A DNA stretch of 11,526 bases, from the IMG/VR virus record IMGVR_UViG_2537561670_000005; one strand, written 5' to 3'. A program made the position numbers and the translations under genes. This document shows positions 1 to 10,690 of this stretch, in pieces. A model generated the notes under the pieces. It did not search any database. It was given only the letters and a program-made list of their open reading frames with translations, and had not been told where the DNA came from. Position 1 is the first letter of the stretch; the number at the start of each line of letters is the position of its first letter. This DNA comes from a virus. Taxonomy: Duplodnaviria; Heunggongvirae; Uroviricota; Caudoviricetes.

Positions 1-1242
1 ATGGCGAGAAAAACACACCCATTAACCACAGTGCAGATCAAAGCAGCCAGACCAGCGCAAAAGGAGTACACCCTGCAGGACGGCGGAGGGCTTTTTCTCC
101 TGGTCAAACCGTCTGGATCAAAACTCTGGAGATTTTCCTACTACCGACCATCGGACAAAAAAAGAATATTGCTGAGTTTTGGATCGCTTGAAGATGTTTC
201 CCTGGCTGATGCCAGAAAACGCCGTAGCGAGTACAGGACGTTAATCAGTGCCGGAACTGACCCGCAGGACCACGAGAGGCAAAAAAGAGAGACAGAGGCC
301 CGAAGACAAGGGAACACGTTCGAAAATGTGGCGGCGGCATGGTACCAGGTGAAAATCAGCCAGAATCTGGCCCCCAACACGATTAAAGACATCTGGCGTT
401 CGCTGGATAAATATGTATTCCCGTTCATCGGCAACACGCCAATAGATACCCTCACCGCCCGAAGGTTCGTTGAAGTGCTTACACCCATCAAGGAGCGCGG
501 CAACCTGGAAACACTCAAGCGGGTTTTACAGCGCGTTAATGAGGTAATGGATTACGCCGCCAACAGTGGGCTGATTGATGCCAATCCGGCTATGAATGTG
601 CGTAAGGCGTTTCCCTCACCTGTAAAAAAACATATGCCAACAATCCGCCCCGAACAGCTGCCGGAGCTTATGCAGGCTTTATCAGTATCGGCAACAGAAC
701 GGCAGACCAGATTACTGATTGAATGGCAGTTACTGACCGTAACCCGTCCCGCCGAAGCGTCATCAACGCGGTGGGATGAAATCAACCTGGACGCGAAGCA
801 ATGGACGATACCTGCCGGACGCATGAAGATGCGCAGGGATCACGTTATCCCGCTTTCCGGTCAGGCTATGGCGGTGCTGGAGGCCATGAAACCAATCAGC
901 CACCACCGCAATTACGTTTTCCCAAGTCTGAAAGACCCACAGCAGCCGATGAACAGCCAGACAGCTAACGCAGCATTGCGGCGTATGGGATTCGCTGGCG
1001 TGCTGGTGTCTCATGGATTACGCGCCATATTCAGCACAGCAGCGAACGAGGAAGGATTCGAGCCGGACGTAATAGAGGCGGCACTTGCCCACGTCGACAC
1101 CAACGAAGTTAGACGGGCATACAACCGGAGCAACTACATAGAAAAACGCATCGTGCTGATGCGCTGGTGGGGCGAATTTGTCGAGGCTGCGGCGACGGGC
1201 GTAACCCTCGCCAGTGGTAAAAGGGGTATCCGAGCCGTGTAG
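1..1242 (+). CDS. int: Tyrosine recombinase, P4-type integrase (site-specific integrase of a satellite/island)
   Basis: 413-aa ORF starting at the window edge. N-terminus (AARP..Y.L.DGGGL.LLVKPSGSK.WRF.Y) is typical of the P4 integrase arm-binding domain; C-terminal catalytic signature HGLRA and the tyrosine in RRAYNRSNY are present. True start could lie upstream of the window. Confidence 0.93.
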   Translation: MARKTHPLTTVQIKAARPAQKEYTLQDGGGLFLLVKPSGSKLWRFSYYRPSDKKRILLSFGSLEDVSLADARKRRSEYRTLISAGTDPQDHERQKRETEARRQGNTFENVAAAWYQVKISQNLAPNTIKDIWRSLDKYVFPFIGNTPIDTLTARRFVEVLTPIKERGNLETLKRVLQRVNEVMDYAANSGLIDANPAMNVRKAFPSPVKKHMPTIRPEQLPELMQALSVSATERQTRLLIEWQLLTVTRPAEASSTRWDEINLDAKQWTIPAGRMKMRRDHVIPLSGQAMAVLEAMKPISHHRNYVFPSLKDPQQPMNSQTANAALRRMGFAGVLVSHGLRAIFSTAANEEGFEPDVIEAALAHVDTNEVRRAYNRSNYIEKRIVLMRWWGEFVEAAATGVTLASGKRGIRAV

Positions 1243-1737: not shown

Positions 1738-1944
1738 ATGGAAGCAATCAGAAAAATTATCTTTCGCCAGGAAGTAAAAAAAATTATCCACATCAAGGCA
1801 GACAGCACGCTGCAAAGCATGATCAACGCCGGAGAATTTCCGCAGGGTTTTCGCGTTGGTTTACGCCGTCGCGGATGGTATGAGGATGATGTGTTGGCCT
1901 GGCAGAAAGAACGCGAACAGGAAGCACGCGGAACGGCTGCTTAA
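1738..1944 (+). CDS. alpA: AlpA-family (Vis/excisionase-like, MerR-type HTH) transcriptional regulator
   Basis: 68-aa ORF with AAGG RBS at 1725-1728. The pattern ...AGEFPQGFRVGLRRRGWYEDDVLAWQ matches the AlpA signature (FP..., G.R..GW.E.DV..W); its position directly after int is typical of P4-like and PICI elements. Confidence 0.85.
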   Translation: MEAIRKIIFRQEVKKIIHIKADSTLQSMINAGEFPQGFRVGLRRRGWYEDDVLAWQKEREQEARGTAA

Positions 1945-2092
1945 CGGGTATCACAGATATGACAAACACGAAAAAAGCGGCCCCGATATGGAGCCGCCTT
2001 TCTGAACAATTAACCCGCTGCGCCTTATGTGTATATGATCCCAAACATAAGCACGGGGATGATAGCCGCTATCAGGCTGGTGGGCAATGCAA

Positions 2093-2266
2093 TCAGTCTG
2101 GTTCAGTTCGTTGCCATACCTGCAATGAGCGCTTTTCCCTGTATTCTTTAAGGAATTGCTCAAGGGCAAAAGCACATGGCGCGAATCTTTCTGATTCATG
2201 CTCTATCTTTCTGCGCCGTCTTTTCCGTGCCGGTGATAATGTTTTGGTCAATTCTTTATCGGTCAT
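2093..2266 (-). CDS. Hypothetical small basic protein (57 aa from internal ATG; 62 aa from ATG at 2281)
   Basis: ORF 42 nt downstream of the RHH gene on the same strand; AGGA 10-13 nt upstream of the ATG at 2266; contains a KRRRRK stretch. Weak support, overlaps an antisense open frame. Confidence 0.25.
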   Translation of the reverse strand: MTDKELTKTLSPARKRRRRKIEHESERFAPCAFALEQFLKEYREKRSLQVWQRTEPD

Positions 2267-2323
2267 TGTGTTGTCCTGCATAGCAATGCGCCGTAATACC
2301 TTACACCACGGCGCTGATGGTGA

Positions 2324-2629
2324 TTACTCTGGTTCTTTGGTCTTGCGGCGCTGGAGTTCTTCACGTGCGACAGTGACGAGCTGCCCGATCTCCTCGGCGG
2401 CTTTGATTCCGAGTTTTTCCACCTGCGCCAGTGCATCGTGCGAAGAAATCAGGGGGTTTTCTCCGCTTCCTTCTGCCTGGCGGCGGGCGATTTCACCGCG
2501 CATGGCGGTTACTATGAATCCGGCGTTGCTTTCACCGTCCAGTTTTACGGATTCCATGCCTTCAATAACATCATGCGGGATCCGAGCTGTCAGTGATTGT
2601 GATTTTGCGTTTTTTGAACCTGTAGCCAT
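2324..2629 (-). CDS. Ribbon-helix-helix (Arc/CopG-like) DNA-binding protein, putative repressor of the early operon
   Basis: ATG at 2629 with GAGAGGA RBS 7 nt upstream (101 aa; the track start at 2644 is a TTG). N-terminal beta-strand/helix/helix pattern SLTARIPHDVIEGMESVKLDGESNAGFIVTAMRGEIARR. Divergent from the early operon with palindromes in between. Confidence 0.75.
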   Translation of the reverse strand: MATGSKNAKSQSLTARIPHDVIEGMESVKLDGESNAGFIVTAMRGEIARRQAEGSGENPLISSHDALAQVEKLGIKAAEEIGQLVTVAREELQRRKTKEPE

Positions 2630-2650
2630 CTGTAATCCTCTCAATGAAAG

Positions 2651-2745
2651 TGTAAGACAATATACACATAAAAAGTCTTACATAAAAGCATTGACATGTA
2701 AGCCACCTATAAATAAAGTTACTTACACCTTGTTAATGCAAGGTG
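2651..2745. promoter_or_regulatory. Divergent promoter/operator region between RHH regulator and early operon
   Basis: Inverted repeats TGTAAGAC (2651-2658) / GTCTTACA (2675-2682) and CACCTTG (2726-2732) / CAAGGTG (2739-2745); a further TGTAAG half-site at 2697; candidate rightward promoter TTGACA (2691-2696)-N17-TAAAGT (2714-2719). Confidence 0.5.
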
Positions 2746-2825
2746 CAGAAACGACGAAACCCCGCACTGTAGGAGCAGTAACGGGGCTTCTAACCACCAA
2801 CGATAGCAAGATTATCGAGGCAGCT

Positions 2826-3026
2826 ATGAGAAATTATACCATACACCCGCAAGGGCGGGACTCGTACAACCTGAATAAATACATCTGGCGTTTTATCGCC
2901 CTGAGCACGGCACAACCGCGCGTGATTACCATCGAGGCCACCAGCGAACAGGAAGCGCGTCAGCAATCTCCGGCTGGCTGCGTGATGGTATTTGCTGCCC
3001 GTATTCGTCAGGGGGTAGGCTTATGA
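2826..3026 (+). CDS. Small protein (66 aa), possibly Icd-like host cell-division inhibitor family
   Basis: ATG at 2826 with GAGG RBS at 2817-2820; stop overlaps the next start (ATGA). The motif pattern ...YIWRFIAL...SEQEARQ...VMVFAARIRQ resembles what I recall of Icd-like proteins found next to AlpA/primase in P4-like islands; family assignment unverified. Confidence 0.6.
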   Translation: MRNYTIHPQGRDSYNLNKYIWRFIALSTAQPRVITIEATSEQEARQQSPAGCVMVFAARIRQGVGL

Positions 3027-3918: not shown

Positions 3919-4218
3919 ATGAAACTTAAATATTCTGGCTTAACTGCCAGTGGCAACACTCACCCTAAATTTACGCGCGGCGATATTTACCGCGACCAGT
4001 ACGGCGGCACGGTAATGATTAAGGGCGTGGCGGGACGGTGCGTAACTTACCGCCGTGAAGGTTACGAATATGATTGCGTGATGCCTGTTTATCAGTTCCG
4101 GCGTGATTTTTCTCTGGTACAGACCGCGCCGCATAACGTGCCCACCAGCAACGCCAGGGCACGGGCAAACATCCAGAAGCTGAAAACCATGATTAACGGA
4201 TTCAGGGGTAAAAAATGA
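3919..4218 (+). CDS. Hypothetical protein (99 aa), early operon, immediately upstream of and coupled to primase
   Basis: ATG at 3919 with GGAGA RBS at 3905-3909; stop overlaps the primase start (ATGA at 4215-4218). Confidence 0.65.
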   Translation: MKLKYSGLTASGNTHPKFTRGDIYRDQYGGTVMIKGVAGRCVTYRREGYEYDCVMPVYQFRRDFSLVQTAPHNVPTSNARARANIQKLKTMINGFRGKK

Positions 4219-5969
4219 AACTGGCACCGAACGTAAAACAGCAGTCACGCGGCATAAAACACAAAGGAACAGAAGTCATTATTTTTGCGGGTAGTGATGC
4301 CTGGGCACACGCGAAACAATGGCAGGAACATGATGCGCGTATGGCCGGAGATAATGAGCCTCCTGTGTGGCTTGGGGAGCAGCAGTTATCAGAACTGGAT
4401 AAGCTGCAAATTGTGCCGGAAGGCAGAAAATCCGTGCGCATATTCAGGGCCGGATATCTTGCGCCAGTAATGATAAAGGCGATTGGTCAGAAGCTGGCGG
4501 CGGCAGGCGTACAGGATGCAAATTTTTACCCTGATGGTATGCACGGTCAGAAGGTGGAGAACTGGCGCGAATATCTGGCCCGTGAGCGCCAGAATCTTTC
4601 TGATGGTCTGGTCATTGAGCTTCCGGTAAAGCAAAAGGCGCAACTTTCGCAGATGGCGGACAGTGAGCGCGCGCAGCTGCTTGCCGATCGCTTTGATGGC
4701 GTTTGCGTACATCCTGAAAGTGAAATCGTTCACGTATGGCGCGGCGGGGTATGGTGTCCGGTCAGCACAATGGAACTTAGCCGCGAAATGGTGGCGATCT
4801 ATTCAGAGCACAGGGCCACTTTCAGCAAGCGCGTAATCAATAACGCCGTGGAAGCGTTAAAAGTTATTGCCGAACCAATGGGCGAGCCGTCCGGCGATTT
4901 GCTGCCGTTCGCCAATGGTGCGCTTGACCTGAAAACGGGGGAATTTTCCCCGCACACGCCGGAGAACTGGATCACCACGCACAACGGCATTGAGTACACG
5001 CCACCAGCACCAGGGGAGAACATCCGCGATAACGCGCCAAACTTTCATAAATGGCTTGAGCACGCAGCCGGAAAAGACCCGCGCAAGATGATGCGTATAT
5101 GTGCCGCGCTGTACATGATTATGGCGAACCGGTACGACTGGCAGATGTTTATTGAGGCCACCGGAGACGGCGGGAGCGGTAAAAGTACATTCACACACAT
5201 AGCCAGCCTTCTGGCAGGGAAACAAAACACGGTAAGCGCTGAAATGACATCGCTTGATGATGCTGGTGGGCGTGCGCAGGTTGTCGGGAGTCGTCTTATC
5301 GTCCTGGCAGACCAGCCGAAATATACAGGCGAAGGAACGGGCATCAAGAAAATCACGGGCGGCGACCCCGTGGAAATTAACCCGAAATATGAAAAGCGTT
5401 TTACGGCGGTAATCAGGGCGGTGGTGCTGGCAACCAATAACAATCCGATGATATTCACCGAACGGGCCGGAGGTGTGGCACGTCGTCGGGTGATATTCCG
5501 GTTCGATAACATCGTAAGCGAGGCAGAAAAAGACAGGGAGCTACCGGAAAAGATCGCGGCTGAAATCCCTGTCATTATCCGCCGCTTGCTGGCGAACTTT
5601 GCCGACCCTGAAAAGGCACGGGCTTTACTCATTGAACAGCGTGACGGTGATGAAGCACTGGCAATAAAGCAACAGACGGATCCGGTTATTGAGTTTTGCC
5701 AGTTCCTGAATTTTCTGGAGGAAGCACGCGGCCTGATGATGGGCGGCGGTGGCGATTCAGTGAAGTACACGACCAGAAACAGCCTTTACCGCGTCTATCT
5801 GGCGTTTATGGCGTACGCAGGCAGGAGCAAACCGCTAAACGTAAATGACTTTGGCAAGGCTATGAAGCCAGCCGCGAAAGTTTACGGACATGAATATATT
5901 ACGCGGAAAGTTAAAGGAGTAACGCAGACTAACGCAATAACAACAGACGATTGCGACGCGTTTTTATAA
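4215..5969 (+). CDS. P4-family phage/plasmid primase-helicase (D5_N-like region plus SF3-type NTPase), replication initiator
   Basis: 584-aa ORF; Walker A GDGGSGKST (nt ~5163-5189), Walker B-like RLIVLADQP, and a D5-N-like stretch (FANGALDLKTGEFSPHTPENWITTHNGIEY). Followed directly by an iteron array, as for PICI pri-rep/ori. Confidence 0.93.
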   Translation: MKLAPNVKQQSRGIKHKGTEVIIFAGSDAWAHAKQWQEHDARMAGDNEPPVWLGEQQLSELDKLQIVPEGRKSVRIFRAGYLAPVMIKAIGQKLAAAGVQDANFYPDGMHGQKVENWREYLARERQNLSDGLVIELPVKQKAQLSQMADSERAQLLADRFDGVCVHPESEIVHVWRGGVWCPVSTMELSREMVAIYSEHRATFSKRVINNAVEALKVIAEPMGEPSGDLLPFANGALDLKTGEFSPHTPENWITTHNGIEYTPPAPGENIRDNAPNFHKWLEHAAGKDPRKMMRICAALYMIMANRYDWQMFIEATGDGGSGKSTFTHIASLLAGKQNTVSAEMTSLDDAGGRAQVVGSRLIVLADQPKYTGEGTGIKKITGGDPVEINPKYEKRFTAVIRAVVLATNNNPMIFTERAGGVARRRVIFRFDNIVSEAEKDRELPEKIAAEIPVIIRRLLANFADPEKARALLIEQRDGDEALAIKQQTDPVIEFCQFLNFLEEARGLMMGGGGDSVKYTTRNSLYRVYLAFMAYAGRSKPLNVNDFGKAMKPAAKVYGHEYITRKVKGVTQTNAITTDDCDAFL

Positions 5970-6256: not shown

Positions 6257-6535
6257 ATGCACACTTCAGGGAAATTTAATAAATCACTCAAAAAACGCAG
6301 AGACAGAACAGAACCGAAATATCGCGCGTTAGACATGACAGAGCACGCTTTAAAGGTGGCAATCAGAACGATAGACCGACACGTAGGGGAAGGATACGCG
6401 AAGGAACATCCCGACCTGATAAGCGCATTCATGACCACAGCAGCGGCAAACTTTGCCACGCTGACAGAACGGGAGATTGCCGAAGCGGAACAGGTAACAA
6501 CCATCAACGTTAAAACCGGAGAGGTGGAATCATGA
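6257..6535 (+). CDS. Hypothetical protein (92 aa), translationally coupled to ssb
   Basis: ATG at 6257 with GAGGGGG RBS at 6239-6245; stop overlaps the ssb start (ATGA at 6532-6535). No recognisable family. Confidence 0.55.
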   Translation: MHTSGKFNKSLKKRRDRTEPKYRALDMTEHALKVAIRTIDRHVGEGYAKEHPDLISAFMTTAAANFATLTEREIAEAEQVTTINVKTGEVES

Positions 6536-6954
6536 CAGCACAGATAGCCGCTTACGGGCGGCTGGTGGACGACCCGCAGGTAAAACAGACCAGCAAGGGC
6601 ACACCGATGACGCTGGCGCGTATGGCGGTCCCCCTTCCGTGCAGCCAGGCAGATGACGGAACGGCGACGATGTGGTTATCCGTCCTGGCATTTGGCAGAC
6701 AGGCCGAAGCACTGGAAAGGCACCGCAAGGGTGAACTCCTGAGCGTGGCGGGTAACATGCAGATCAGCCAGTGGACTGGGCAGAACGGAGAAACGCGGCA
6801 GGGCTGGCAGGTTATCGCAGACAGTGTAATCAGTGCGCGAACGGCGCGACTGGGCGGCAAAAAAGGTCAACAGGGCCAGGCTACTGACGCGCTGAACAGG
6901 GCAAAACAACAGGCGGGGAATGATGATCCGTACGGGGATAACATACCGTTTTAA
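6532..6954 (+). CDS. ssb: Single-stranded DNA-binding protein (short phage/plasmid-type SSB)
   Basis: 140-aa ORF with GGAGAGGTGG RBS; OB-fold pattern comparable to E. coli SSB (G.L..DP..., W..V.AFG..AE......KG....V.G.......W); Gly/Gln-rich linker and canonical acidic C-terminal tail ...DDPYGDNIPF. Confidence 0.9.
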   Translation: MTAQIAAYGRLVDDPQVKQTSKGTPMTLARMAVPLPCSQADDGTATMWLSVLAFGRQAEALERHRKGELLSVAGNMQISQWTGQNGETRQGWQVIADSVISARTARLGGKKGQQGQATDALNRAKQQAGNDDPYGDNIPF

Positions 6955-7140: not shown

Positions 7141-7173
7141 TTTCGTTCGACATCTTTGCAGGCAGATAAAAAA

Positions 7174-7208
7174 GCCCGATAAGGTCAGAGGTGGCTTATC
7201 GGGCTTTT
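7174..7208. terminator. Bidirectional intrinsic terminator-like hairpin
   Basis: Perfect 10-bp stem GCCCGATAAG / CTTATCGGGC with an 11-nt loop, flanked by AAAAAA (5') and TTTT (3'). Confidence 0.5.
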
Positions 7209-7264
7209 GCATATGAGGCTTTTTGGTGCACTGACACACATGATCGGGATAATCATTTCATAAT

Positions 7265-7334
7265 TTGCAACGCAACTCAACATCATTGCACAAAATGCAA
7301 TCATGATTATAATCAGAGCTGGATGAACATCCAG
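7265..7334 (+). promoter_or_regulatory. Putative promoter/operator of the capsid operon
   Basis: TTGCAC (7286-7291)-N16-TATAAT (7308-7313); palindromes ATTGCA-caaaa-TGCAAT (7285-7301), TTGC-aac-GCAA (7265-7275) and CTGGATG-aa-CATCCAG (7319-7334) between the -10 and the RBS. Confidence 0.4.
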
Positions 7335-7369
7335 TTATGATTTTTTAAGTCAAAGAGGAATTTCTTACT

Positions 7370-7576
7370 ATGGCTGAAGAGAAAAAAGGCGGTGTTTCGG
7401 TGTACATAAGCCCCGACATCGTGAAGGCGCTCAAGGAACGCCACCAGCAGAACGTAAAAGCAGGCATTGCGGCAGGACTTGATCCGCTGGCGATGGTTGA
7501 GCCGTCAACAGGCTGGCAGGTACGCTCCTATTTACGCGCGGCGCTGGGCATAAATCAGACTCATGGGGGTGAATAA
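7370..7576 (+). CDS. Small protein (68 aa), possibly ribbon-helix-helix-like; first gene of the capsid operon
   Basis: ATG at 7370 with GAGGA RBS at 7355-7359; stop overlaps the capsid gene start (TAATG). GGVSVYISPDIVKALKERHQQ resembles a CopG/Arc-type strand-helix motif; assignment tentative. Confidence 0.55.
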   Translation: MAEEKKGGVSVYISPDIVKALKERHQQNVKAGIAAGLDPLAMVEPSTGWQVRSYLRAALGINQTHGGE

Positions 7577-8631
7577 TGGCAGTCAAAGCAATGGCACTTA
7601 ACACACACCAGCTTTTCGCGTACCTGAATCGCGAGGATATTGCGGAATTTAAATTTAGTCCGCTGTTTACCGCGCTGTTTTTCCCGAACGTGGCGACATT
7701 CAACACGCAAAACATCATGCTGGATACCCTGGACATTGAAGAAGTCACCATGTCGGCGTTTTGTTCGCCTATGGTGGGTAGCCAGGTTCAGCGCGATAAA
7801 GGGTACGAAACCAGCACGATTAAACCTGGCTACATGAAGCCAAAGCACGAAATCGATCCAACGAAAACCATCATGCGCATGGCTGGAGAAGATCCGGCAC
7901 AGCTTAACGACCCTACCTATCGCCGTATGCGCCTGATTACTGGCAATATGCGCCGCCAGATAAACGCCATAAAAGCGCGCGTGGAATGGCTGGCGGTAAA
8001 TGCGGTAACGACCGGAAAAAACATCATTGAGGGCGAAGGCATAGAGCGCTATGAAATCGACTGGAAGATACCGGAAAAAAACATCATAGAGCAGGCCGAC
8101 GGGAAAAAATGGTCAGAGCAGGACAAAGAAACCCACGATCCAATCTATGATATCGAACTATACGCCGATCAGGCTGGTTGCCCCGCAAACGTCATGATTA
8201 TGGGCGTTGAGGTATGGCGAACGTTACGCAGCTTTAAAAAATTCCGTGAGCTGTACGATCTTTCCCGTGGTTCAGAGTCCGCCGCAGAGCTGGCCTGTAA
8301 AAACCTGGGCGAAGTGGTGAGCTTTAAAGGCTATCTGGGCGATATTGCCCTTATCGTCTATTCCGGCAAATACACTGACAGCGACGGCACAGAAAAATAT
8401 TTCCTTGATCCTGATTTGCTGGTCCTGGGCAACACCAACAACAAAGGGCTGGTGGCCTATGGTGCGATTATGGATCAGGAAGCGGTAAGAACAGGCGCAA
8501 CGCAAAACATGTACTACCCGAAAAACTGGATTGAGGACGGCGATCCGGCGATTGAGTACGTGCAGACGCACAGCGCACCGCAGCCGGTTCCGGCAGATAT
8601 TCGCAAATTTGTTACCGTCAAAATTGCTTAA
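7576..8631 (+). CDS. Major capsid protein, lambda gpE-like
   Basis: 351-aa ORF alignable along its length to recalled lambda gpE (341 aa): FKFSPLF..LFF, KPGYMKPKHE, DP.YRR.R.I..NMR, W...DK.T.DP..DIE.YA, FRSFK, SYKG..GD.A..VYSG.Y, VLGNT...GL..YG, YPKNW...GDPA.E....SAP. Confidence 0.93.
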   Translation: MAVKAMALNTHQLFAYLNREDIAEFKFSPLFTALFFPNVATFNTQNIMLDTLDIEEVTMSAFCSPMVGSQVQRDKGYETSTIKPGYMKPKHEIDPTKTIMRMAGEDPAQLNDPTYRRMRLITGNMRRQINAIKARVEWLAVNAVTTGKNIIEGEGIERYEIDWKIPEKNIIEQADGKKWSEQDKETHDPIYDIELYADQAGCPANVMIMGVEVWRTLRSFKKFRELYDLSRGSESAAELACKNLGEVVSFKGYLGDIALIVYSGKYTDSDGTEKYFLDPDLLVLGNTNNKGLVAYGAIMDQEAVRTGATQNMYYPKNWIEDGDPAIEYVQTHSAPQPVPADIRKFVTVKIA

Positions 8632-8642
8632 CGGGGGATTCT

Positions 8643-8978
8643 ATGGACACTCCATACATTGAGTTATTTGCAGGCAGTCAGCAGGTATCCACGACGCTGG
8701 TACATTTTGCCGCTGATGCTGGCGTTATTCAGGAATTTACCCCGCTGATGCTGGCGGACAATGGCGAGTTTAAGCCGTGGGATGGTCAGGAATCTGGCAA
8801 GGCTGTTTATCTGACTTCGTACCTCGTGGACACGTCAAAGCAGAAATCAGCACAGTGTTACAAGACGGGGATATTCAATATTGCCGCCGTTAACTGGCCT
8901 GAGAGCGTCGACACCGATGCGAAAAAATGCGCCGCCTTTGCGGGTTCTGGCGTATCCGTTCAGCCGCTGGCCCGATAA
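8643..8978 (+). CDS. Head decoration protein, lambda gpD-like
   Basis: 111-aa ORF, GGGGGA RBS; aligns with recalled lambda gpD (110 aa): TPLMLD/TPLMLA, WDG, YKSG.F/YKTGIF, WPE, KK..AFAG..(I/V)S. Confidence 0.82.
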   Translation: MDTPYIELFAGSQQVSTTLVHFAADAGVIQEFTPLMLADNGEFKPWDGQESGKAVYLTSYLVDTSKQKSAQCYKTGIFNIAAVNWPESVDTDAKKCAAFAGSGVSVQPLAR

Positions 8979-8990
8979 GCAGGGGGAACG

Positions 8991-9404
8991 ATGGCAACGA
9001 ATGAAAGCATCATGGCGCTACCGCTGGCGAGTAAATTTAAAGCCGAAGCGCGGGCAATGGCTGACAGAGGTTTATCAACCTACGAGGCCGTATATCAACT
9101 CAACAAACTGGAAGAGCAGGACAAGCCGCGCGCTGATGCGATTATGGCGCTTCATGAGCATAAAGACTATCAGCCGCTGTTGCGTGCAATGGCAAACGTG
9201 CCTTGTATCGATGTTGATACGGCTAAAAACATCCTGAACATGACCATAGAGCAGGAACGCCCGAAGGTTGCACCAGAGCTTACCGCAGCCTTTGAAAACT
9301 TTATGGACATGCACAGCCCACAAACCGTATCAGCTGGCATGGCATACGATGGCAGAAACCCAGGCGATGACGGCGACATCGATCGCATACTGAAAACCAT
9401 CTGA
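8991..9404 (+). CDS. Hypothetical acidic protein (137 aa), last gene of the capsid operon; candidate scaffold/assembly factor
   Basis: ATG at 8991 with AGGGGGA RBS at 8981-8987; followed by a terminator; no recognisable family. Confidence 0.62.
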   Translation: MATNESIMALPLASKFKAEARAMADRGLSTYEAVYQLNKLEEQDKPRADAIMALHEHKDYQPLLRAMANVPCIDVDTAKNILNMTIEQERPKVAPELTAAFENFMDMHSPQTVSAGMAYDGRNPGDDGDIDRILKTI

Positions 9405-9410
9405 GACAAG

Positions 9411-9432
9411 GCCGGAGAAATCCGGCTTTTTT
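9411..9432 (+). terminator. Rho-independent terminator after the capsid operon
   Basis: GCCGGA-gaaa-TCCGGC hairpin followed by TTTTTT; near-identical to the terminator at 6971-6992. Confidence 0.75.
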
Positions 9433-9510
9433 GCGGGTCCTTCCTGGAATTATGGCCCGTTACGGGGCGGCGACCTCGCGGTTTTTCGCTATTTATGAGC
9501 TTTTTCAGGG
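9433..9510 (+). other. Lambda-type cos site 2 (cosQ + cosN, plus orientation, cosB truncated)
   Basis: gcgggtccttcctgg ... ttacGGGCGGCGACCTcgcggtttttcgctatttatgag matches the recalled lambda right-end/left-end junction (cgggtcctttccgg...ttacg|GGGCGGCGACCTcgcgggttttcgctatttatgaaaa); the 12-nt cohesive-end sequence is at 9465-9476. Downstream sequence diverges from lambda R sites. Confidence 0.8.
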
Positions 9511-9609: not shown

Positions 9610-10152
9610 ATGAAATCGCACCTGATGAACAAAAAAAACATGGCGAAAAGCTGCCGTGTAAGTGCGACAGCGTTCGACAAGTGGGGAGTGACTCCCGTTG
9701 AACGTAAAGGCCGTGAGGCGTTTTACGATGTTGCCAGCGTGATAGACAATAGGGTTAACAATGCAATTAGCCAGCTTACAAACGACAAAGGCGATATTGA
9801 TGATGATGAACTCTTACGAGTCAGGATCAGATTACTGACAGCACAGGCGGAGGCGCAGGAACTTAAAAACGAGCGCGATCGCGGTGACGTGATTGATACT
9901 GAGTTTTGCCTGTACGCGCTTTCAAAGCTGGCGAGTCAGATTTCATCAATCATGGACAGCCTCCCGCTTACTATGCAAAGGAGCTTCCCACAGATTACCC
10001 CCGCCATGCTGGATAGGCTTAAAAGGGAAGTGGTTAAAGCCTGTAATGCCAGTGCCAGAGTTGCCGACAACCTCCCACAGATACTGGCTGATTACTTGAA
10101 AGAAACAACCGGAAACGTACCGGAAAAGTTGCTACAGAAGAAAGGCGAGTAA
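9610..10152 (+). CDS. Terminase small subunit, lambda Nu1-like (start uncertain: 9610, 9625 or 9640)
   Basis: 180-aa ORF; strong similarity to recalled lambda Nu1: LTAQAEAQELKNERDRGDVIDTEFCLYALSKLASQISSIMDSLPLTMQRSFP vs RLTRAQADAQELKNARDSAEVVETAFCTFVLSRIAGEIASILDGLPLSVQRRFP; the N-terminus MNKKNMAK... (from 9625) parallels MEVNKKQLA..., and FYDVASVI parallels LYDSAAVI. Weak RBS at all candidate starts. Confidence 0.9.
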   Translation: MKSHLMNKKNMAKSCRVSATAFDKWGVTPVERKGREAFYDVASVIDNRVNNAISQLTNDKGDIDDDELLRVRIRLLTAQAEAQELKNERDRGDVIDTEFCLYALSKLASQISSIMDSLPLTMQRSFPQITPAMLDRLKREVVKACNASARVADNLPQILADYLKETTGNVPEKLLQKKGE

Positions 10153-10169
10153 CAGACGCGCAATTATTG

Positions 10170-10378
10170 AACAAAACTGAGAAACGACATGAAAGCGTCA
10201 TAAATCGCCATTTTAGATGATTACCGTGTCGTTTCTTTTTATTGTGTATCTATTTAAAAACAAATAGTTATGTTCGAGAAGTACCGACATGCTTTTTCCA
10301 GAAAAATTTTCATAAACAGATAAAAACCGCGAGGTCGCCGCCCCGTAACGGGTCCATAATTCCAGGAAGGACCCGACG
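10170..10378 (-). other. Lambda-type cos site 3 (cosQ + cosN + cosB-like R elements), minus orientation
   Basis: The reverse complement reads cgggtccttcctggaattatggacccgttacGGGCGGCGACCTcgcggtttttatctgtttatgaaaatttttctgg...ataactatttgtttttaaatag...aaaagaaacgacacgg...tgtcgtttctcagttttg, colinear with recalled lambda cosQ-cosN-cosB (tttatgaaaattttccgg, ataacttaatgtttttatttaaaa, aaaggaaacgacagg, tgtcgtttcctttctctgtttttg). Confidence 0.8.
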
Positions 10379-10408: not shown

Positions 10409-10690
10409 ATGACAGAAGCCGAAATACTGGGATTAATCCGCCGTGCTGGTGGAATCAGCCAGCAGACTGACGAACAGGCCACGCAGCCGGACAGCGTGAC
10501 AGCCGAAAATTATGCGCGTGTTGTTGCTGAGGTGATGCGCCGTGATGGTATCCAGCTTAATGATGTGGATATGCGCAACATACGGATCCGCGTTCTTGAA
10601 ATGCTGGCCTACAATCGCCGCGTGGCACTGTATCGGGAAACGGAGAAAATTACATACCACTGGAAGAAGCCGGAGCGGTTGCGGCGGTAA
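10409..10690 (+). CDS. Hypothetical protein (93 aa) between inverted cos site 3 and the terminal repeat array
   Basis: ATG at 10409 with weak RBS; basic C-terminus; no recognisable family. Confidence 0.5.
   Translation: MTEAEILGLIRRAGGISQQTDEQATQPDSVTAENYARVVAEVMRRDGIQLNDVDMRNIRIRVLEMLAYNRRVALYRETEKITYHWKKPERLRR

Follow-up and report, generated by a model that had tools for sequence, protein, structure and literature searches.

A free-standing relative of the C-terminal part of lambda Nu3/gpC in the capsid operon of a chromosomal island

Background

Among phage satellites, the Gram-negative phage-inducible chromosomal islands (PICIs) typified by EcCICFT073, described by Fillol-Salom et al. 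(PMC6092414, PMC6739421), raise the question of what their own capsid genes are for. A capsid gene is present in 21 of the 29 reference Gram-negative PICIs of one survey (PMC10111431), and its purpose is an acknowledged puzzle because its deletion had no detected effect. Here we analyze an 11,526-nucleotide stretch of DNA (IMG/VR virus record IMGVR_UViG_2537561670_000005, Caudoviricetes; the whole of it is hereafter the window) that represents such an island and, within it, the block in which two small open reading frames (ORFs), ORF68 and ORF137, bracket the genes for a capsid protein (E) and a decoration protein (D). The type of island and its capsid and decoration genes have already been published; what is new is that ORF137 is a free-standing, truncated member of the Nu3/gpC family in a satellite. 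Our literature search returned nothing that links these satellites to Nu3 and nothing that characterizes ORF68 or ORF137.

The final third of lambda gene C also gives rise, by in-frame translation, to Nu3. This protein is the lambda scaffold; its partners are further Nu3 molecules, gpC, the portal, and gpE, and it has left the particle by the time packaging begins (PMC3224144). The likeness of ORF137 to Nu3/gpC extends from the setting, near gpD and gpE homologues, to the acidic, poorly ordered character of the proteins and to shared sequence elements: a helical repeat with the motif IMxLxEAxGRExLAxxLAxxPGMTxxxAKxIL, a tail of the form FExFMxxHSPxxVxxG, and, at the C-terminus, a short conserved helix. 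Unlike lambda Nu3, however, ORF137 is a free-standing gene that is not nested in a protease gene and is placed after E and D rather than before them; its identity to the lambda proteins is only 22-23%.

Satellite proteins that share the C-terminus of a scaffold have a precedent in the pathogenicity islands of Staphylococcus aureus (SaPIs), where CpmB acts on the helper capsid protein and makes small capsids. CpmB (and CpmA) are small helical satellite proteins related to the capsid-binding C-terminus of gp46, the scaffold of phage 80alpha, a relationship that ORF137 parallels; unlike the SaPI case, the window satellite has genes for a capsid and a decoration protein of its own, and a change of size was not seen in EcCICFT073. 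Satellite-encoded shell proteins are also a feature of the capsid-forming PICIs (cf-PICIs). According to the published description, these carry all the genes for capsid formation and packaging, whereas the late region of the window offers only the shell, the decoration protein, a scaffold fragment, and the small terminase (TerS); set beside the cf-PICIs, the capsid protein of the window belongs to Pfam Phage_cap_E, that is, to the lambda gpE type. With EcCICFT073, the window island shares the operon order, a lambda-type cosN, and the kind of integrase/AlpA/primase backbone. It differs in its position at tRNA-Pro (yejM-narP), in its host lineage (that of Escherichia coli Nissle and ATCC 25922), and in its 180-aa Nu1-like TerS and its gene for a single-stranded DNA-binding protein (SSB) 5' of the operon, as against the 144-aa RppA and the PerC gene of EcCICFT073.

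ORF137 is related to the C-terminal part of Nu3 and gpC

The features of the block under study and of the terminator behind it are:

7370-9404, plus strand: the block ORF68-E-D-ORF137
7370-7576, plus strand: ORF68, 68 aa, heads the operon and is translationally coupled to E
7576-8631, plus strand: E, major capsid protein of the lambda gpE family, 351 aa (Pfam Phage_cap_E, 3.4e-52)
8643-8978, plus strand: D, head decoration protein of the lambda gpD family, 111 aa (Pfam HDPD, 5.7e-17)
8991-9404, plus strand: ORF137, acidic, 137 aa, truncated homologue of the Nu3/gpC C-terminus (PHROGs, hhalign, BLASTP)
9129-9236, plus strand: Nu3/gpC repeat unit in ORF137, residues 47-82 (IMxLxEAxGRExLAxxLAxxPGMTxxxAKxIL)
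9288-9401, plus strand: C-terminal tail of ORF137, FENFMDMHSPQTVSAG ... DIDRILKTI, common to gpC/Nu3 tails
9410-9437, plus strand: intrinsic terminator closing the operon, GGCCGGAGAAATCCGGC then TTTTTT (RNA fold)

As shown by homology, ORF137 descends from the C-terminal part that Nu3 and gpC have in common, with one clear repeat, one degenerate repeat, and the tail. Pfam and NCBIfam hold no match to the protein. In PHROGs, it matches phrog_1999, labelled 'unknown function', over its full length (4.4e-65), and phrog_53, the lambda gpC-type head maturation protease, at C-terminal positions 494-567 of 583 (2.7e-9); lambda Nu3 (residues 117-200) and lambda gpC (residues 355-438) match the same phrog_1999 at 2.7e-26 and 1.5e-25, respectively. 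An exhaustive phmmer search of 1.8 billion representatives recovered few relatives of ORF137, among them P0078 (E 2.4e-5 for the whole library), a 195-aa Nu3-like protein that contains the motif IMxLxEAxGRExLAxxLxxxPGMTxxxAKxLL three times and that, in pairwise comparison, matches ORF137 at 4e-11 and Nu3 at 2e-16. A further link is provided by the lambdoid prophage of strain CFT073 that adjoins icd, whose gpC, a 501-aa S49 peptidase, has three repeats and the tail FEHFMANHSPAAVQGG...DADVKMLMAMP: residues 49-131 of ORF137 align with residues 416-493 of this protein, which comprise its last repeat and tail, at 36% identity (BLASTP, E 6e-10).

Profile comparisons point in the same direction. The ORF137 family aligns with eight phage Nu3/gpC C-termini in hhalign at 96.6% probability (E 5e-10), with residues 44-121 of ORF137 placed on residues 119-191 of Nu3, and a hidden Markov model (HMM) of the repeat unit, made from seven phage units, matches ORF137 residues 47-82 with a domain E of 1.9e-5. 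By eye, residues 5-40 can be taken for a degenerate first copy of the repeat, where ESIMALPLA...ARAMADRGLSTYEAVYQLN of ORF137 stands against DAIMALHEH...LRAMANVPCIDVDTAKNILN. The tail aligns with FEHFMANHSPAAVQGG of the CFT073 prophage gpC and with FEQFMQQHSPAPVQAG of P0078, and its last 8 residues are invariant throughout the ORF137 family. The first ~115 residues of Nu3 have no counterpart in ORF137, which is a separate gene 3' of E and D rather than part of a protease gene; a scan of late-region proteins revealed no S49 peptidase domain, and peptidases are likewise absent from the genes that RefSeq annotates in the island.

Neither ORF137 nor ORF68 found a match by tblastn in 50,697 phage genomes, scans of species-representative genomes for both families gave no true match, and a sequence search of the PDB with the ORF137 family profile returned nothing meaningful; both families are strain-variable. 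The protein is acidic, as a preliminary description of this DNA had said (isoelectric point (pI) 4.9, net charge -7). Its AlphaFold model is all-helical and has a predicted local distance difference test (pLDDT) score of 47.7, and is therefore too poor for a fold search; a low-confidence all-helical model of this kind is consistent with a flexible scaffold.

The preliminary description, which placed the two small ORFs exactly where we find them on either side of the capsid and decoration genes, regarded both of their products as unknown and offered them as candidates for scaffolding that would be analogous in role, not in sequence. For ORF68, the first part holds in that it matches no family of known function. 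ORF137, in contrast, has detectable homology to Nu3/gpC, and because its resemblance to a scaffold lies precisely in its sequence, a scaffold role is supported, and more strongly than had been proposed.

Some homologues of ORF137 bear the NCBI name 'phage head-tail connector protein'. A role as head-tail connector was considered and rejected: ORF137 has no match in Pfam or NCBIfam (E up to 1) or in the PDB and is unlike lambda FI, W and FII not having been compared directly. One source name in the ORF137 cluster is 'head-tail preconnector protein', an old name for gpC-type proteins; the current NCBI name may be a corrupted form of it and so still reflect the homology to gpC. The assignment made here corrects this misleading database name.

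The operon and its conservation

ORF68 and ORF137 are real, selected genes and not chance ORFs, because the gene order recurs, the ratio of nonsynonymous to synonymous substitution rates (dN/dS) is low, and the block is widespread in E. coli genomes. Shine-Dalgarno sequences are strong for all four genes (AAAGAGGAA before ORF68; GGGGGA-type before E, D, and ORF137), the stop codon of ORF68 overlaps the start codon of the capsid gene (TAATG at 7574-7578 in the window, with the same overlap in EcCICFT073, in the related locus L008, and in Pluralibacter), and the terminator, a 9-bp G+C-rich stem followed by U6 with a fold of -20.1 kcal/mol, lies directly 3' of ORF137. The overlapping or closely spaced genes, the strong ribosome-binding sites, and the terminator after ORF137 together imply that the four genes form one transcription unit.

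EcCICFT073 has the same four genes in the same order, and its proteins are 97% identical to those of the window for both capsid and decoration, 94% for ORF68, and 93% for ORF137; named by order, they are an unnamed gene before c1499 (ORF68), then c1499, c1500, and c1501. When ~120 further loci with ORF68 homologues were fetched from viral and metagenome collections, the order ORF68-E-D-ORF137 was found in ~100 of ~130 loci, the exceptions being mostly truncated contigs, and the upstream module stayed conserved although flanking genes differ between elements. Over the 2.7 kb around the block, E. coli Nissle 1917, ATCC 25922, and genomes related to them match at 100% identity; in Nissle 1917, both small genes are annotated as 'hypothetical protein', and parts of this stretch are matched in 1437 of 5426 complete E. 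coli genomes. Pairwise dN/dS between diverged copies is 0.1-0.3 for all four genes; the exception, 0.76 for ORF68, comes from the near-identical window/EcCICFT073 pair, with very few substitutions. Divergence is faster in the two small genes than in the structural genes: in a comparison of the window with L008, identity is 84% for E and 85% for D, as against 63% for ORF68 and 42% for ORF137.

These data bear on the idea that the cassette is an evolutionary leftover or a redundant copy of helper head genes that plays no part in the satellite cycle or, in another version, a backup for helper capsid genes, as suggested for helper-embedded PICIs. Such a backup has been discussed (PMC10111431), and the lack of a phenotype upon deletion of c1499 or c1500 (PMC6092414), the frameshift-split capsid gene of a Pluralibacter element, and the loss of ORF137 from some elements are all compatible with it. 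We nevertheless regard this explanation as quite improbable, given that purifying selection acts on all four genes between diverged copies, in lineages with saturated synonymous sites, and that gene order and the promoter module are kept across E. coli, Salmonella, and Pluralibacter. Moreover, the capsid protein is only 44% identical to lambda gpE and 45% identical to gpE of the CFT073 lambdoid prophage, and the decoration protein 36% identical to lambda gpD; at 36-45% identity to the helper versions, these proteins are therefore not recent captures.

In the Pluralibacter gergoviae element just mentioned (L005:7207-8260), the gpE-like gene is split into ORFs of 179 and 170 aa, apparently by a frameshift, and ORF68 and the decoration gene are intact.

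A candidate scaffold for the shell of the island

We lean, with moderate confidence, toward a joint reading in which the stretch 7250-9437 forms the late 'shell' operon of a PICI that depends on lambda, with ORF137 as the cognate scaffold and ORF68 as an autoregulator. The operon would then be a reduced and reordered lambdoid head cassette that consists of a promoter, ORF68, the gpE-like, gpD-like, and Nu3-like genes, and a terminator. As an internal scaffold or an assembly chaperone, ORF137 would serve the gpE-like protein that the island itself encodes, to which it may bind via its Nu3-type C-terminal region while self-associating via its helical repeats; the helper phage would supply the portal, the protease, the terminase large subunit (TerL), and the tail, and the island's Nu1-like TerS together with the cos site at 9465-9476 would direct the packaging step in the way demonstrated for Rpp of the related island (PMC6739421). 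ORF68 may, on slighter indications, be a satellite-specific small DNA-binding autoregulator of the operon. The acidity of ORF137, its low-confidence all-helical model, and its divergence, faster than that of E or D, fit a scaffold-like protein. With a cut-down Nu3 behind the decoration gene, the cassette becomes a coherent set of shell, cement, and scaffold rather than two stray structural genes, and a gene pair without a detected phenotype becomes a testable shell-plus-scaffold cassette; nothing in this contradicts current understanding, and it points to chimeric or satellite-specific capsids as the question to be addressed.

Several observations weigh against this interpretation. Natural 93-aa variants of ORF137 (P0028, P0030, P0031) have an in-frame deletion of residues 21-64, such as would be expected from recombination between the two repeats; ORF137 is absent from four elements (L018, L040, L075, L108), in which TerS directly follows the decoration gene; and Salmonella and Pluralibacter relatives carry, in place of ORF137, an unrelated acidic ORF of 77-79 aa (L006:8727-8966 in Salmonella; L004:8639-8872 in Pluralibacter). 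In EcCICFT073, deletion of c1499 or c1500 changed neither transfer nor interference, the island marked by c1501::tetA was still transferred, and the DNA packaged when lambda served as helper was without exception phage-sized (PMC6092414); when the late-region genes were expressed singly, only c1503 (RppA) inhibited lambda (PMC6739421). The correspondence of c1501 to ORF137 is assigned from gene order alone. Finally, for ORF68, no profile is significant and fold searches found no RHH (ribbon-helix-helix) structure that matches its AlphaFold model.

The replacement ORFs of 77-79 aa were themselves considered as Nu3-like proteins. Their ...D-I-x-x-I/L-L... end resembles the tails of Nu3 and ORF137 by eye; PHROGs and the repeat HMM show nothing, and homology is not claimed.

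The same facts can be turned toward a different function, in which ORF137 is a decoy that mimics the C-terminal domain of helper Nu3/gpC, competes for the capsid protein, and excludes the protease or scaffold or else redirects shell size. ORF137 retains only the part common to Nu3 and gpC, without the N-terminal ~115 residues of Nu3, and is closest to the last repeat and tail of gpC from the co-resident lambdoid prophage; the SaPI protein CpmB reportedly competes with the 80alpha scaffold, which provides a parallel. Yet, the one gene of the EcCICFT073 late region that reduced lambda plaquing upon single expression was c1503 (PMC6739421), the DNA packaged with the lambda helper was all phage-sized (PMC6092414), and the island has capsid and decoration genes of its own, for which a pure decoy has no need. 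A decoy role of ORF137 against lambda is thus disfavoured, and we consider the decoy explanation as a whole unlikely. The proposal of the preliminary description that the small genes determine capsid size is likewise unsupported, EcCICFT073, with copies 93-94% identical to those of the window, having packaged phage-sized DNA only and the c1499/c1500 deletions having been silent.

A bolder scenario, which we offer as a long shot, is that, given the right helper, the cassette of E, D, and the Nu3 C-terminus, together with ORF68, builds satellite-specified shells on helper portals and represents a stage between classical and capsid-forming PICIs. ORF137, possibly with ORF68, would then set a smaller triangulation (T) number, with room for the ~11.5-kb island in one or two copies, and the phenotype would have escaped notice because testing was done with lambda, phi80, and one resident prophage.

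ORF68

ORF68 is a conserved satellite-specific protein, possibly a small regulator. It is slightly basic (pI 8.1) and matches phrog_3255 (unknown function) at 1e-36; Pfam, NCBIfam, PADLOC, and PDB sequences offer no match to it, and PADLOC, like NCBIfam, has none for ORF137 either. Homologues are found in E. coli, Salmonella, and Pluralibacter, always directly 5' of the gpE-like gene, and the replication module before them varies: a primase-family gene in the window, a DUF927 protein in Pluralibacter, and an AAA_25 protein in Salmonella. In an alignment of six diverse homologues, the N-terminus GGV[ST]VYISP is invariant.

The RHH-like strand-helix motif pointed out in the preliminary description is indeed seen, at residues 4-24, where it covers only the strand and the first helix; the Pfam matches behind it are sub-threshold (BrnA_antitoxin, E 0.017, 15.9 bits against a cutoff of 26.1; RHH_1, E 0.15, 12.5 against 20.5) and occur in 3 of 18 homologues. 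In common with RHH autoregulators (CopG, Arc, BrnA-type antitoxins), ORF68 is a small protein whose gene opens the operon and overlaps the one that follows, and its N-terminus, with these weak RHH_1 and BrnA matches, has the alternating hydrophobic strand, the proline, and the amphipathic helix. It departs from RHH proteins in its predicted first helix, which spans 20 residues, and in the 12-residue insertion that comes after this helix. Structure prediction, which had been suggested as a check, yielded a model with helices at 15-34 and 47-59 (pLDDT 75.7) for which the fold searches found no matching RHH structure and, for ORF137, the low-confidence helical model described above. The constant position beside E, the invariant N-terminus, the weak RHH matches, and the place of ORF68 as the first gene after a promoter with repeated boxes point, weakly, to an autoregulator.

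Alternatively, ORF68 could be not a regulator but an assembly cofactor or chaperone for the island capsid protein, produced in step with it through translational coupling, for example, a size or nucleation factor. We consider this rather unlikely. The overlap with the capsid start in the window, EcCICFT073, L008, and Pluralibacter, the strict linkage to E in ~120 loci irrespective of the replication module, the lack of a significant match to a DNA-binding family, and the divergence faster than that of E and D, as in ORF137, all speak for such a cofactor. However, the ORF68 profile shows no similarity to any of the lambda and CFT073-prophage head proteins, nor does ORF68 resemble the equally sized gpW in a direct comparison; the sole sequence hints point to the RHH strand-helix motif; and in operons headed by RHH proteins, too, a small autoregulator encoded first is commonly coupled to the gene that follows.

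Boxes, promoter, and hairpin upstream of the operon

A putative regulatory region with the following features precedes ORF68:

7252-7270, plus strand: distal 19-bp box ATCATTTCATAATTTGCAA, first of two direct repeats (family D3) 30 bp apart
7282-7300, plus strand: proximal 19-bp box ATCATTGCACAAAATGCAA, with the inverted core TTGCA-N5-TGCAA, overlapping the -35 position
7286-7313, plus strand: putative sigma-70 promoter, TTGCAC, 16-nt spacer, TATAAT (7308-7313), predicted from the sequence
7311-7346, plus strand: hairpin followed by a T-run, with arms 7311-7325/7328-7342 (inverted repeat I4), terminator-like or a 5'-leader stem-loop

Among 65 distinct upstream sequences, conservation begins abruptly at ~7250 and exceeds that of the coding regions. 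The two 19-bp direct repeats follow the pattern ATCATTnCAnAAnnTGCAA, which occurs nowhere else in the window; the core of the distal box, ATTTCATnAnnTnCAA, is kept in the E. coli, Salmonella, and Pluralibacter elements, and TTGC...AAATGCAA of the proximal box is nearly invariant in the compared set. The putative promoter combines a weak -35 with a perfect -10 element and is missing from a consensus scan because its -35 matches in only 3 of 6 positions; TATAAT (TAAAAT in one lineage) and the spacing are kept in all lineages, and the Shine-Dalgarno sequence of ORF68 is among the conserved upstream features as well. The putative late promoter is conserved and probably regulated, which could explain the timing of cassette expression.

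The preliminary description proposed that ORF68 might act on palindromes at 7285-7334. Two palindromes do exist here, at 7281-7290/7296-7305 and at 7311-7325/7328-7342. The first is the proximal box, in which only the core TTGCA-N5-TGCAA is symmetric and conserved, whereas the second behaves as a base-paired hairpin. Its RNA fold (7311-7346) has -13.4 kcal/mol and a z of -3.97; in 29 distinct sequences, 94.7% of the cells of the 7311-7342 stem pair, compared with 23-40% in slid-partner controls, and three pairs show compensatory double changes, with G-U intermediates also occurring. In Pluralibacter, the same stem is shifted downstream by ~20 nt and has another loop and U6. In the L008-type lineage, the CTGGAT palindrome is absent and the N-terminus of ORF68 is unchanged, which argues against 7311-7342 as the ORF68 operator. 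The pattern of conservation favours an RNA/DNA hairpin, either a read-through terminator or a 5' stem-loop, over such an operator. Should ORF68 bind DNA, its more likely targets are the conserved pair of 19-bp boxes over the -35 region, which make better operator candidates than the hairpin palindrome. The left arm of the E. coli-type hairpin overlaps the -10 box, so that the full stem would exist only in read-through transcripts; a promoter-proximal terminator with antitermination was considered.

Further copies of the 19-bp boxes were sought in the rest of the island, in the 45-kb CFT073 stretch L003 (with the prophage Q gene and what follows it), and in the head-gene stretch L009, and none were found. 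This search gave no evidence of a shared regulon, and, as the boxes do not recur in L003, no hint of control by the helper late regulator Q.

Another strong, terminator-like hairpin (7163-7215, AAAAAAGCCCGATAAG ... CTTATCGGGCTTTT) is located between SSB and the operon promoter, ~100 bp 5' of the 7311-7342 hairpin; the two stem-loops would insulate the late operon from early transcription. The operon is also mosaic: 27 loci (among L064-L090 and L113-L130) pair an ORF68 allele that is 65-69% identical to that of the window with an ORF137 allele that is at least 90% identical. In these loci, the promoter region is nearly unchanged, and the divergence of ORF68 is not mirrored in the candidate operator DNA.

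The island and its setting

The ORF map of the window is a co-oriented series of genes, which, in addition to the operon, includes:

1-1242, plus strand: integrase (ORF map, Pfam)
1738-1944, plus strand: AlpA-like gene (ORF map, Pfam)
4215-5969, plus strand: primase-family gene (ORF map, Pfam)
6532-6954, plus strand: SSB (ORF map, Pfam)
9610-10152, plus strand: Nu1-like small terminase, 180 aa (Pfam Phage_Nu1, 2.3e-23, residues 33-148)
10409-10690, plus strand: 93-aa ORF (ORF map)

The element is a probably lambda-dependent Gram-negative PICI of the EcCICFT073 kind. PICIs were recognized by a size of ~10-15 kb, co-orientation of all genes, and a non-prophage attachment (att) site; the window shows an integrase, AlpA, a primase module, co-oriented late packaging genes, a lambda-type cosN at 9465-9476, a position next to tRNA-Pro according to the Nissle annotation, and a late operon near-identical to that of EcCICFT073. 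The Nissle 1917 island, a 100% match, sits between tRNA-Pro/yejM and narP. A search of the whole window against Rfam gave no match.

The small terminase of the window is the full-length 180-aa Nu1-like TerS and not the 144-aa RppA of EcCICFT073, where the 144-aa gene after the operon fits the stated length of RppA (c1503); the window island therefore belongs with the 'TerS-encoding' E. coli PICIs, which showed poor transfer in the 2018 study. The lambda cohesive-end sequence GGGCGGCGACCT is present in two exact copies, at 9465-9476 on the plus strand and at 10332-10343 on the minus strand. The two cos copies are inverted and lie on either side of the small-terminase gene, and the adjoining bases are also repeated, both translating as RYGAATSRF; EcCICFT073 was reported with two cos sites. 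A 355-aa ORF at 1959-3026 corresponds to no annotated gene in Nissle and is probably spurious because RefSeq shows, at this place, an Icd-like pseudogene, an antisense YlcI/YnfO gene, and a short Icd-like gene.

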